This document shows, one piece after another, positions 2,191 to 14,925 of a stretch of DNA of 64,000 nt. Within the stretch, counting starts at the first letter, position 1, and each line of letters opens with the position of its first letter. The stretch lies in the NCBI GenBank assembly GCA_964016885.1, contig OZ024740.1, positions 192,448,001 to 192,512,000 of the forward strand. The letters are read 5' to 3'. A program made the position numbers and the translations under genes. This stretch comes from Eledone cirrhosa. Taxonomy: Eukaryota. The notes beneath the pieces were generated by a model. That model was not told the origin of the DNA and searched no databases. It saw only the letters and a program-made list of their open reading frames with translations.

Positions 2191-4306
2191 TTTCATCAGC
2201 AAAGCATAACCTTCGCCATATTAACACAACGGTTATTAATTACTATGGAGTCACTCAATATAAACATAATATAAATATATGCTAAATATATATATATATA
2301 AAACCTTCGCTTACGTTGGAAGCAATGTAATTTATATGACCACAAACATGCTAAGAAGAGAAGTTACATTTTTTTCATTTTATACGCTACTGTGTTAAAA
2401 ATGCAAATTACATATCATGACATAGGAAGAGAAACCTGACGAAATAACATGTAAGGAACACGAATAAAATGGATTTGATCATGTATCTACTAGATTAGGA
2501 CATACCTGGTGCTCAGTATTCAAGATAGTGCAATTGACTTTTCAGACCATTATTAGATACTTTGCAAGCAATTACTCTTTTAAAGGGAAAAAATAAAATG
2601 TAAGCGTGTTGAAAATGCCTTAATATGTAATAGCTAGTTCTGTAGATTACAAACAACGATAGAATCATGTTAAGTATACGCATAAGAACCTCCAAAGAAT
2701 CACCTATAAATAAAGTGCAGAACCGATACCGGTGGAAACGCAGAATTTCGAATATACCTGCCATGTATGTTTTGTAAGAAACACTTTTTTATTATTTTTA
2801 CCGTATCAATAATTATATAGTGCTGGAATGTATTTAATCCAATTGACACATTCTGTGCCTTTGCCTCATATATAAACAGGCTTCTGTCTGTCTGTCTGTC
2901 TCTATCCCCACACACAAGCACACACATGCCCACTCACACGCACACACTAATAATCCCCCCCCTACATATATAAATATACATACAGAGAAAGATATATATA
3001 TATATATATATATATATATATATATAGATAGATAGAGAGAGAGAGAGAGAGAGAGAGAGAGAGAGAGAGAGAGAGAGAGAGAGAGAGAGAGAGAGAGACT
3101 GTGTGTGTGTTTGTAAAAAGCATGATAGTACATGTGAAGGCCTATAGTTATGAAGCTGTCAGCTTCCAAAATTCATAGTTATATGTTTTCAAATGTTTAT
3201 TCGCAAGCATAACTTATATTGCTAGATAAACAAATACACATTTCAGAGTGAGCATCTTAATTTCAGGCCGAGCGAGTGAAACATTAGAGTAACAAGACTC
3301 ATTATTTAGTCATAATAAATGTAAATTTAAAATTTAGTTCGGTATTGAGTACTCCTTTCTTGTCCGCCAACTACATTTGTATGAATGTATACATGTAAAT
3401 ATGTATGTAAATATGTATGTATGTGTTTGTGTGTATTTGTGTGAGTGAGTTGATGTGATTGTGTGTGTGCATGGTAATTATAGCAAAACGTCACAAAATA
3501 CGTTGAACATTATTATATCGAAAATTAGATTTTATTCATAGTTAACTGAGTAAACAATGGCTTAGAAATTACGTCTTAATTTCCGTAATCTACCTAATTA
3601 TCTTTATAAATGAAAAAGGCCACGGAAATAATTGAAAAGATAATTAAAATTAACCGGTTAATGAGAATTTACTACAAAGCTGCCTATAGTATGCACTCTT
3701 TGAATTATATTAACATATATTTAAAAGCAAGTGATGTATATAGAATGTATTAATTAATTACATATAATAATTAAGAAATAGATGGAAAGTGCCCTCGTGC
3801 ATCCCAAAAGCCACCTGCATACGTAGGTGTCTACAACATTCACCTACCCGACAACACCACCCAAAACACATGCAGATATGTTATGAAAGTATATTGAAAA
3901 ACACGCATACACACACACACACAGAAACACACTGAGTTAAAATAACATCTTATAACGGAAACAAATATATACAGATACACACATATTTAAATAAACATAC
4001 ATATACTAAGATACAGCCACACATACACACACACACATATATATATATATATATATATATATATATATATATATATATATATATTTCGTTCCTGAATTTG
4101 TTTAGCAAGATTCTTTATCTGAAATCGTGTGTTGAAACCGATATTGTTATACTTTGGGAGGGTCATGTTGCCAATAAGAAACACACGCACCAGTTGCTTT
4201 CACTTCAATTTATTATATATTTATAAATTTATAAATTTACAAATCTACAAACTTATAAGTTTCTGGTTGGTTGGTTGGTTCCACAACCAGATAGTTGTTT
4301 ATATAT

Positions 4307-4351
4307 AGTCATAGTCCTTTCGTCACACACTATGTGACCTCATCAGTGACT
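4307..4351 (-). ncRNA. Minimal type I hammerhead ribozyme (inverted pLTR copy)
   Basis: Reverse complement: AGTCA CTGATGA G GTCACA-loop-TGTGAC GAAA GGAC TA TGACT. Confidence 0.8.
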
Positions 4352-4711
4352 GCGGATTCCTTTCTTTGTTTCTGTGCCTTTCCTTTCTTCTGTCCTACGC
4401 CATTTTGTTTCTGTGTGTGTGTTGTGTGCTCCGTTTGCGCATGCGCCACATCCGGGTGTCTGTGTCTGTTTGTGTTCATTTATCTATTTGTTTATTTATT
4501 TACATGTTGTTGGTTGGTTGTTTGTTCTATGTGTGTGTGTGTTTTCATTTTATCCTTAATTGTAAGTTGTGATGTTGCTGTTCCACTCATATTTGCTATT
4601 TAATTTTGGTTGTAATTCTTTTATGCTTACTGCCTCTGTAATTTGCCTAAACATTGCATCTTTTCTGTGTGTGGATTCTATTTTTATTTCTATGTTCTCT
4701 AATTTACCCTT

Positions 4712-12419: not shown

Positions 12420-13103
12420 ATGTGAAGATAGACATAGAATATTCGAAAATATTCTGTATGTTTATAATAAACATTTTGAAGACCTAATCGCTATAGAATA
12501 GAATACGTCACGTATTACCATTAGATTCTCGATAAAAGCAAGGGAAGTAACCTACGCGTTTCATTCTTATTAGAAATCTTCAGGATCACATATCCAGTGC
12601 TTTTATCGATAATGACACAGCTAGAGACTTCCCTTGCTTTTATCGAGAATCTAATTGTAATACGTGACGTATTCTATTCCTAGCAATTAGGTCTTCAAAA
12701 TGTTTATTATAAACATACAGAATATTTTCGAATATTCTATGTCTATCTTCACATATATATCGCTATTTCAGAGCATTTAATCCAATTTCTAATTTCTGCC
12801 GGACCGGCAACCGCTCTTTCAAACCAGTTCCTGTACACAGCTAAGTATTCTATAAGTCTCTAGCTGTGTCATTCTCGATAAAAGCACTGGATATGTGATC
12901 CTGAAGATTTCTAATAAGAATGAAACGCGTAGGTTACTTCCCTTGCTTTTATCGAGAATCTAATTGTAATACGTGACGTATTCTATTCTATAGCGATTAG
13001 GTCTTCAAAATGTTTATTATAAACATACAGAATATTTTCGAATATTCTATGTCTATCTTCACATATATATCGCTATTTCAGAGCATTTAATCCAATTTCT
13101 AAT
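12420..13103. repeat. ~310-bp hammerhead unit: inverted arm (12420-12630) plus ~1.5 tandem units
   Basis: TTCCCTTGCTTTTATCGAGAATC at ~12629 and ~12938; HHRs at 12547-12589(-) and 12895-12937(+). Confidence 0.9.
12895..12937 (+). ncRNA. Minimal type I hammerhead (GAAACGCGTA type)
   Basis: GTGATC CTGAAGA T TTCT AATA AGAA T GAAA CGCG TA GGTTAC. Confidence 0.87.
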
Positions 13104-13176
13104 ATATATATATATATATATATATATATATATATATATATATATATATATATATATATATATATATATATATATG

Positions 13177-14925
13177 TATGAGTGGGAAGTAGGCAACTGC
13201 CACCATTATGGTTCCCTTTACAGGTGAAGTTACTGCTAAAATTCCGGGGTATCTGGCTACATGCTAAATATTTGTAGTTCTAGTGTTAACTTTATTATGG
13301 TTGTGGTGATGTTCTGTGTTATGGGATTTATGTATGTAATAAATGGACTGTTCCTAATCAGATTCAGTAAGGGCTTATTTTAAATAGCCGCATGGTTCAT
13401 ACATATCTGTTATTTAGCAGTAACAGCACCTATACAGGGAACCATAATGGTGGCAGATGCCTACTTCCCACTCTTAGTGGCAGACTCAGAATCAACCCTA
13501 GAATAGGAATGAGCAATGGGATGACAAATAACAAACGGCCAGGTAATAATAACCTTATTAAGGCCCCTGCCAACTCCACTAGAACAGCTAGAACGAATAG
13601 GCATAGAAATATCACCCGGCTTAACCCTCCATACTCATCTAATTTAGCCACTAATATCCGTAAACGCTTCTTCTCTATCCTATCTAAACATAACCATAGA
13701 TATTACAAACTCTTTAATAAAAACAACCTTAAAATCTCATTCTCCACAACACCTAGCCTAGCTAGCCACACCGCATTTAGTTACCATCATAAACTAAGAG
13801 AGTATAACTCCCACACCGCGTTACCCCCTCCCCTCAAATACACCAGGCCACTACACCAATACTTACTCTAGTAGCATACCCCCCCCCATATAATTCTTCT
13901 CGCACACACCAGCCGCATTGTTTAAACAACCCTACCCTTACTAAGCGCAACAGTAACTGCAACTGCCGTTACCATAATGCATGCCCACTAAACGGACAAG
14001 GCCTTTCACCCAATATAGTATATAGGTGCACAGTTAAAATAACATCACATACCAGCTCCTATATTGGATCTACCTCTAACCCTTCAAGGTACGCTATAAC
14101 GCGTACTCATCTTCCTTCCGAGACCCTAGCAATAGATGTTCAATATCTGTAGCTAGCCTCATTGAAAACCTTAAATTAACCAACATTGAACACTCACTAA
14201 CATGGGATGTCTTGGCTAGATACCAAGCGTTCAATGGAGGAGGAAACTCTTGTGATCTCTGTCTTTCCGAGGCCTATTAAATAACTTTATCACGACCTGA
14301 ACCAATTAATGATAGACAGGATTTAACTATTAGCTGTCAACAGCGAAGGGCAAATTCCTTCGCCAACAGAATATTCGTCCCAACATAGTCATCTAATCTC
14401 ACTTTTCCTTATAGCTAACATGTTAAATATTTAACCCAGGCTTGGATAATTATAAGTACCTCCCCTACACTGTCTCTCACTTAAGCCCATTAGCACTTCT
14501 TAGCTATGAATCACCTACAATTTCTAAATTCTCAAGGAGTTACTTCCCTTGAAACCCGTCTCTATTTAGTAAGGTAAATATGTCCTTAGTTGGGCATTTT
14601 GTTACGCATAGGCAGATCTCGCTTAATACAGCCTCGACAGAAGAATAATGATTGTCTATAGTAGACAATAGATAGACCCAGGACACCGTTGTGAAATACC
14701 AATAAATGGAACATTACATTCATGTAACCATCTTTCTTTACCTTACTTTATATTCCTTATTCCATCGTATCTTTATCAATATTTTCATTATCTCTTTTGA
14801 AGCTCTGAAGAGCCCCTCCATAATTGTTACCTAAGTTACTTATCTTCATATGAACCAGATCAATAATGATCTATAATCATTTGATCCAGAAACATTATAT
14901 GGAGTAGCAAAACAATTGTAAATGG
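13177..14925 (+). mobile_element. Decayed Naiad-type PLE 3' portion (linker, GIY-YIG, pLTR)
   Basis: NPPYSSNLATNIRKRFF...FNKNNLKISFSTTP; CNCRYHNACPLNGQ..PNIVYRC..SYIGST; short 5' inversion 13177-13243 vs 13412-13476; degenerate long-stem-II HHR at 14801-14920. Confidence 0.85.

Follow-up and report, generated by a model that had tools for sequence, protein, structure and literature searches.

A chain of Penelope-type insertions between TA repeats in Eledone cirrhosa, seven of them two-armed and likely made by twin target-primed reverse transcription

Penelope-like elements (PLEs) with an endonuclease (EN+ PLEs) are known, as far as the accessible parts of the sources cited in this text go, for inverted pseudo-long terminal repeats (pLTRs), one-ended tails, (TA)n targeting and paired hammerhead ribozymes (HHRs) on opposite strands (PMC8557442, PMC3846280, PMC4209133, PMC8969392), and such opposite-strand pairs were noted at distances of 100-700 bp (PMC4209133). 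The formation of their tandem and inverted insertions is stated as an open question (PMC8557442), and the origin of the inverted structures is left open or put down to self-priming (PMC8557442, PMC3846280). In vitro, a PLE protein cuts and extends both target strands, its reverse transcriptase (RT) starts at two sites bracketing the tail, and a dimer is predicted (PMC11167929); the accessible text of that paper does not use “inverted” of insertions. Retrozymes without long terminal repeats (non-LTR retrozymes) have been proposed to be circular RNAs moved by PLEs (PMC7229834; bioRxiv 10.64898/2026.07.22.740005), and the enzyme that moves animal retrozymes is stated as open, PLEs being proposed from co-occurrence (PMC7229834). 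We analysed 64,000 nucleotides of Eledone cirrhosa DNA (hereafter the window: contig OZ024740.1, positions 192,448,001 to 192,512,000, assembly GCA_964016885.1), in which PLEs and retrozymes stand in one train of modules.

Our analysis indicates that this train is a chain of separate Penelope-type insertions between TA repeats, seven of them two-armed and likely formed via twin target-primed reverse transcription. The two-arm anatomy, overlooked by the initial annotation, is what is new here and is the main feature; the elements are of known kinds in a striking pile-up, and the train itself is a curiosity. Eight modules (M1 to M8) with (TA)n between them are present approximately at the coordinates that annotation had given, with some corrections: M3 spans 7017-7443, extra stubs of a ninth family and of the M5 family lie at 7505-7537 and 10225-10284, and the (ATT)n end of M8 is at 14942. 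The modules had been described as mutually dissimilar, only two of them with PLE coding sequence, and both descriptions hold: an all-versus-all BLAST of the eight family sequences gave a single 31-nt HHR-core alignment (M6 against M7, E 0.034), and coding sequence is kept in M1 and M8. Judging from their sequence, M1, M2 and M8 are truncated copies of coding PLEs, and M4 to M7 are by anatomy non-coding tandem non-LTR retrozymes. The features, in window positions, are as follows.

4037-4085, no strand: (TA)n target tract
4086-4714, minus: M1 left arm, 3' part of a Neptune-like PLE; tail of 55 nt at 4086-4140; HHR 4307-4351
4715-6567, plus: M1 right arm, 5'-truncated PLE (C-terminal part of RT, linker and GIY-YIG, interrupted by stops); short end; HHR 6349-6393
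6588-6796, minus: M2 left arm; tail of 64 nt at 6588-6651; HHR 6727-6764 with U3-A8 core
6797-6935, plus: M2 right arm; short end; HHR 6822-6859; the family is the 3' tip of a coding PLE
7017-7443, no strand: M3, old two-arm insertion, arm identity 83%; decayed HHR cores at 7093 (minus) and 7281 (plus); left short end, right tail
7505-7537, no strand: 33-bp stub of a ninth palindromic family, with a longer copy near 38590-38780
7540-8308, minus: M4 left arm, non-coding unit of 520 bp; tail end; HHR cores 7788 and 8307
8323-9165, plus: M4 right arm; short end; HHR core 9036, a further core destroyed near 8508
9226-9982, minus: M5 left arm, non-coding unit of 540 bp; tail end; HHR core 9565
9985-10208, plus: M5 right arm; short end; HHR core 10019
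10225-10284, minus: second M5-family stub, between TA tracts
10445-11245, minus: M6 left arm, non-coding unit of 424 bp; short end; HHR cores 10690 and 11112
11273-12354, plus: M6 right arm, carrying the tail; HHR cores 11645 and 12069; arms meet at (AATG)n, 11240-11271
12414-12630, minus: M7 left arm, non-coding unit of 310 bp; short end; HHR core 12583
12627-13103, plus: M7 right arm, 1.5 units long, with tail; HHR core 12901; family very young
13177-13408, minus: M8 internal 5' inversion; 64 bp duplicated with 13413-13476
13413-14942, plus: M8, 5'-truncated Hydra-like PLE with broken GIY-YIG; HHR 14802-14922 (long loop II, GAAA to AAAA); (ATT)n end

All modules but M8 consist of two arms placed head-to-head, one ending in a tail and the other at a short end. 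By HHR sense the left arm is minus and the right arm plus, with both RNA 3' ends facing outward into TA. The short site lies upstream of the tail site, the tail measuring 55 nt in M1, 64 in M2, about 106 in M4, 94 in M5 and 26-42 in M7. Tail and short ends are paired in 7/7 two-arm modules of the window. The same pairing recurred in a census of best-matching copies (37 M7, 24 M4 and 24 M5 loci), where, besides 36 single arms, we found 22 two-arm insertions of M7, 13 of M4 and 15 of M5. All 50 were head-to-head and none tail-to-tail; 44 paired a tail with a short end, two had ends of the same type and four were broken or unscorable. Long M1 copies agreed, with tail and short ends in 9/9 of those stretches in which both ends were readable (9 of 14). 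In the literature searched on PLEs and retrozymes, two-arm retrozyme arrays, the end-pairing rule and PLE-retrozyme chimeras are not reported (older subscription papers and supplements lay outside the search), and the accessible part of an octopus repeat annotation names neither hammerheads nor retrozymes (PMC13282606).

We favor the following mechanism. A PLE protein, probably as a dimer, would cut both strands of a (TA)n tract, and each 3' end would prime a cDNA. One cDNA would begin at the tail start site of the RNA, the other at the short site 26-106 nt upstream. Each RT would extend for a variable distance and on retrozymes run past the HHR site many times, as a circular or an uncleaved multimeric RNA would allow, and the two cDNA ends would be joined via 0-3 nt of microhomology. 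The M7 junctions bear on this last step, since 7 of the 11 cleanly scored share 2-3 nt, against 18% expected for 2 nt or more. TA would remain on both sides as a new target, and insertions would therefore pile up. Retrozyme RNAs would borrow the PLE enzyme in trans. In L1 twin priming, both target strands prime cDNA and the products are joined by microhomology. The inversion in M8 resembles this process; in the two-arm modules, unlike in L1, priming on both strands would begin at two fixed sites close to the 3' region of the RNA and yield full mirror arms, not an internal inversion.

Joins between families were found in a search of fetched loci. In two direct head-to-head junctions without TA, an M1 short arm meets an M7 tail arm (L106) and an M2 tail arm meets an M6 short arm (L070/L379); both have a 1-nt overlap and pair a tail with a short end. 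The M1-M7 insertion suggests the M1 family as the likely partner of M7, a proposal for and against which we see about equal weight. More tentatively, twin priming by a dimeric PLE might be obligate (tail and short site, one cut, two different RNAs loadable). On this view, rolling-circle reverse transcription in both directions would turn hammerhead circles some 310 nt long into palindromes as large as 10 kb, and the young M1 and M7 would form a matched, currently active enzyme-parasite pair. A junction of M4 and M7 at L125 was not counted as a chimera; it is tandem and involves an old M4 copy at 76% identity.

The initial annotation had recognised about 18 HHR motifs, every module with its own. 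Our family-anchored search bore this out, with 18 HHR-like motifs over the eight modules (M1 2, M2 2, M3 2, M4 3, M5 2, M6 4, M7 2, M8 1) and one additional M4 copy, outside the 18, whose core is destroyed. An HHR descriptor tuned on the motifs of this region, and thus circular for sensitivity and favouring the region, accepted 10 of the 18 and none in the remaining 53 kb of the window. It gave a mean of 0.01 matches on 100 dinucleotide shuffles and 14 matches in 60 evenly spaced 10-kb genome stretches (600 kb), or 0.23 per 10 kb, about 40-fold below the density of the region; by this measure HHR density does exceed both shuffled and genome background. A less circular test used relatives of M7 found via flanking homology at 61-72% identity, which yielded 10 HHRs. 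Covariation of C3-G8 with U3-A8 was seen in 10/10, stem I pairing in 43/50 cells (permutation mean 37.8, P 0.0004, relatedness not corrected), and in stems II and III the sequence varies while pairing or palindromy is mostly kept.

The motifs thus show the CUGAnGA/GAAA/UH core, the three stems and the covariation of type I hammerheads. We class them, by descriptor and covariation and not as Rfam family members, as minimal PLE-type HHRs; the covariation suggests that they are under selection, and they are predicted ribozymes. They share with the published minimal PLE hammerheads a short palindromic stem III and, in M2, the U3-A8 core, a published variant (PMC4209133). Unlike those, M4, M5 and M8 have long stem II insertions, and C3-G8 and U3-A8 switch inside one family. 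Folding z-scores of single motifs were mostly weak, with only M5 (-4.2) and M8 (-2.0) lower, and are uninformative for minimal HHRs. Further HHR-like motifs occur in other repeats beside a long TA tract at 58655-58701 and 59439-59517, and extra HHR families absent from the window were seen at L253, L295, L303, L307, L345 and L354. At L239 (3107-3149) lies an M7 subfamily with compensated stem changes, and similar letters dominate run X1.

Among the coding modules, M1 represents, by the frames of its relatives, an autonomous and young PLE family, of which it is a truncated copy. Open frames exceed 1000 aa in many copies and reach 1240-1290 aa, and the unit is about 4.3 kb. By eye, the 1281-aa protein has YVDD and VVY..C..C..YIG motifs, an RT, a CX4CxxC linker and a C-terminal CCHH GIY-YIG domain. 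The Neptune-clade motifs (CX2-5CxxC linker and CCHH), which Neptune shares with Nematis (PMC8557442), were found by eye in M1 and in the M2 parent, and we regard both as Neptune-like by motifs. The M1 fragment in the window matched RVT_1 weakly (E 0.001), the full open reading frame (ORF) gave nothing significant against Pfam and 0 matches in a PDB sequence search, and part of its Atlas neighbours, at 0.96-0.98, have RT or GIY-YIG families. In M1 copies the HHR-to-HHR spacing is 4.1-4.3 kb and the inverted arms are up to 99-100% alike. The M2 parent has an RT-EN frame in at least 10 of 20 loci fetched with M2 upstream sequence. In M8, a broken copy, the CxCX5C linker and the CxxC motif are present and CxH reads CQQ; most copies of the family end in (ATT)n, unlike the (TA)n insertion of almost all Hydra families, and we call M8 Hydra-like by linker without assigning it as a Hydra member. 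Its HHR has a loop II of about 80 nt and a mutated core in the window copy.

M1, M2 and M8 resemble EN+ PLEs (PMC8557442, PMC3846280, PMC11167929) in the RT with C-terminal GIY-YIG, partial tandems, terminal-repeat HHR, inverted 5'-truncated copy, one-ended tail and microsatellite targeting, and M1 has the whole EN+ anatomy (pLTR partial tandem, HHR in the repeat, inverted copy, one-ended tail). Tails here are 26-106 nt, against 30-40 nt in the published elements. Beyond the published elements, the pairing of one tail with one short end is counted here as a near-rule and both arms may reach kilobases.

Two frames of the M1 family have unusual forms: at L340 (2912-7132) a 1407-aa frame is an apparent in-frame fusion of the N-terminus of another PLE with the M1 ORF, and at L344 (4087-7929) the ORF holds a long asparagine-rich stretch resembling rotifer PLE inserts (PMC3846280). 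In the M2 family, arms stop in a zone near window 6790-6800, about 30 nt downstream of a TATA-like box; it is a candidate transcription start, and the ends of 10 of 16 incidental arms fall there, within about 10 nt. A cap-templated G at M2 arm ends was considered and rejected as query bias, because the query held the base: the extra base occurred in 23/24 tail arms obtained with that query and in 1/8 incidental arms, the sole incidental case being the window's own copy.

The retrozymes M4, M5, M6 and M7 have units of 520, 540, 424 and 310 bp, each with an HHR, and arms of more than one unit with no ORF. They resemble described non-LTR retrozymes (PMC7229834; bioRxiv 10.64898/2026.07.22.740005) as AT-rich, non-coding tandem units with a type I HHR each. 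Unlike those, their arrays are built of two opposed arms that have fixed ends of the PLE type, and they also form chimeras with PLE arms; the words “tail” and “orientation” are absent from the accessible text of the preprint. M6 and M7 fall within the unit range of 150-450 bp (PMC7229834), which M4 and M5 exceed, and the latter two lie inside the 51-972 bp of bioRxiv 10.64898/2026.07.22.740005. M4 to M7 all carry the PLE insertion signature, in line with the proposal that many non-autonomous ribozyme RNAs were mobilised here; for M1, M2 and M8, which derive from coding PLEs, that proposal is not supported. M7 is a very young family: several chromosomes carry near-identical copies, and arms reach 23 near-identical units, the largest insertion having 23.3 + 8.3 units. 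Chimeric junctions aside, no coding parent of M3 to M7 was present among the fetched loci. In M7 relatives of 61-72% overall identity (L206, L020, L375, L067), a long stem and the tail sequence are conserved, a candidate protein-binding element.

All modules but M8 belong to repeat families that insert in (TA)n. Arm-to-arm identity is 83% in M3, 91% in M4, 93% in M6, 94% in M5, 98% in M2 and 99% in M1 and M7; the modules therefore arrived over a long time, in line with the earlier view of (TA)n tracts as repeatedly used landing pads. Past a flanking tract, another family member follows in 27/285 cases (9.5%), where random DNA gives 5.7% per side (p 0.007), in support of such reuse. The host genome is 3.0 Gb, rich in AT and microsatellites, and long TA tracts number 6.6 per 10 kb in random DNA from it. 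These families contribute 41 elements to 600 kb of random genome, with at most 4 per 10 kb, a background that is undercounted since the element library comprised the window's families only.

The mirrored arms could instead stem from self-priming or fold-back of one strand, not from priming by both target strands. Self-priming on an antisense template has been proposed, with palindromes at inverted junctions (PMC3846280). Private variants are common to both arms of one M7 insertion (L093, L094, L118), as copying would give, and in concatemers either end type would be copyable from an inner unit. However, the M1 arms of the window each hold unique sequence, the tail arm being 629 bp and the short-end arm 1853 bp without a copy of the tail, and therefore neither is a fold-back copy of the other. 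The inner ends of M7 arms lie at scattered positions and are not mirror-symmetric, and insertions with arms from two different families exist; we consider fold-back unlikely. Twin priming on uncleaved linear multimer transcripts, with arrays later lengthened by unequal exchange and no circular RNA, is possible if somewhat doubtful. Pairs of variants in long arrays recur at spacings of 10, 4, 3 or 4-5 units, not through whole arms, unequal-crossover expansion has been discussed, and 8 of 9 tested retrozymes were non-cleaving (bioRxiv 10.64898/2026.07.22.740005). By contrast, most young arms exceed one unit and are almost invariant, the M7 unit folds favourably when circular (z -5.7 relative to a rough shuffle), and HHR covariation is kept in relatives. 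Retrozyme arms also cross the cleavage site many times without scars, and a circular template seems on balance probable. The M7 unit occurs in three runs (type not on record) as a single closed record of 340 nt, equally compatible with a circle and a uniform array. Strict periodicity of variants as proof of multimeric circles was not borne out (L097, with an indel, lay outside the scoring).

The initial annotation spoke of a “ribozyme island”, and a selected, functional cluster would account for the rarity of seven or more consecutive TA-linked elements: by hand calculation about 0.01 seven-link chains are expected per genome at 9.5% adjacency and about 0.35 at 15%, and unlisted families would raise the rate. 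Yet arm divergence ranges from 1% to 17%, several cores are mutated, the families are genome-wide repeats with generally elevated adjacency, and the flanking 20 kb on either side are ordinary. The term is overstated in view of the 41 elements of the same families in random genome and no sign of function found, and we consider selection of the cluster very improbable. Because adjacency is elevated generally but a seven-link chain is rarely expected, the train stands at the extreme of a general tendency, and nothing suggests function. That the palindromes are miniature inverted-repeat transposable elements (MITEs), fold-back DNA transposons or assembly artefacts is largely refuted and hardly credible. 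M2 and M3 do resemble terminal-inverted-repeat elements of 300-430 bp in TA, but centres differ among copies, ends are unequal and the parents encode RT; against an artefact, arm divergence varies by family, as in ageing insertions.

Several observations weigh against twin priming from paired sites on PLE and retrozyme RNAs. Covariance models lent no support: Rfam gave 0 matches over the whole window at the gathering threshold, and with E<=10 none of the 147 matches in window 3000-16000 belonged to a hammerhead family. The end census consisted of top BLAST hits, that is, young copies, and covered M7, M4 and M5. The two insertions with ends of the same type are both M4 (L132 and L133), and M8 breaks the end rule, with other copies having the same (ATT)n end on both arms. 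Among the M7 junctions, 13 of 24 were left unscored (filler DNA or seed failure). The non-periodic variants in long arrays imply block duplications, so that array length does not all come from insertion, which weakens the case for a circular template. There are only two clean chimeras, and each might have arisen when an element inserted beside an older one and the DNA between them was lost. At L126 (2680-3168), an M7 arm is directly joined to the 3' part of a Hydra-like PLE, as a chimera or an insertion with deletion, and the assignment of a partner to M7 is therefore blurred.

Related repeats occur elsewhere in the window. The ninth palindromic family (38590-38780, 7505-7537) is a frequent neighbour of other modules across TA. 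A second M2-family palindrome, 91% identical and with another centre, lies inside (TA)n at 60389-60754, and old M1-related two-arm stubs at 49093-49538 and 53833-54228 (71-82%). Further decayed PLE fragments, Hydra-like by motif, are at 33882-34631, 41228-44172 and 56557-57806. Two decayed non-LTR elements with apurinic/apyrimidinic (AP) endonuclease and RT span 14885-18348, adjoining the (ATT)n end of M8, and 19212-24672. A short interspersed nuclear element at 542-618 is presumably octopus-like.

This study bears on both open questions stated above, since retrozyme insertions with a PLE end signature and joins to PLE arms make the origin of inverted PLE insertions and the identity of the enzyme moving retrozymes testable. 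The young M1 family with intact frames beside the near-identical young M7 retrozyme provides named reagents with exact predicted start sites. For annotation, such palindromes, of which there are roughly 200,000 copies in the genome, could be misnamed MITEs or satellites. Twin-armed insertion, if right, would explain the spread of PLEs and of parasitic repeat RNAs.

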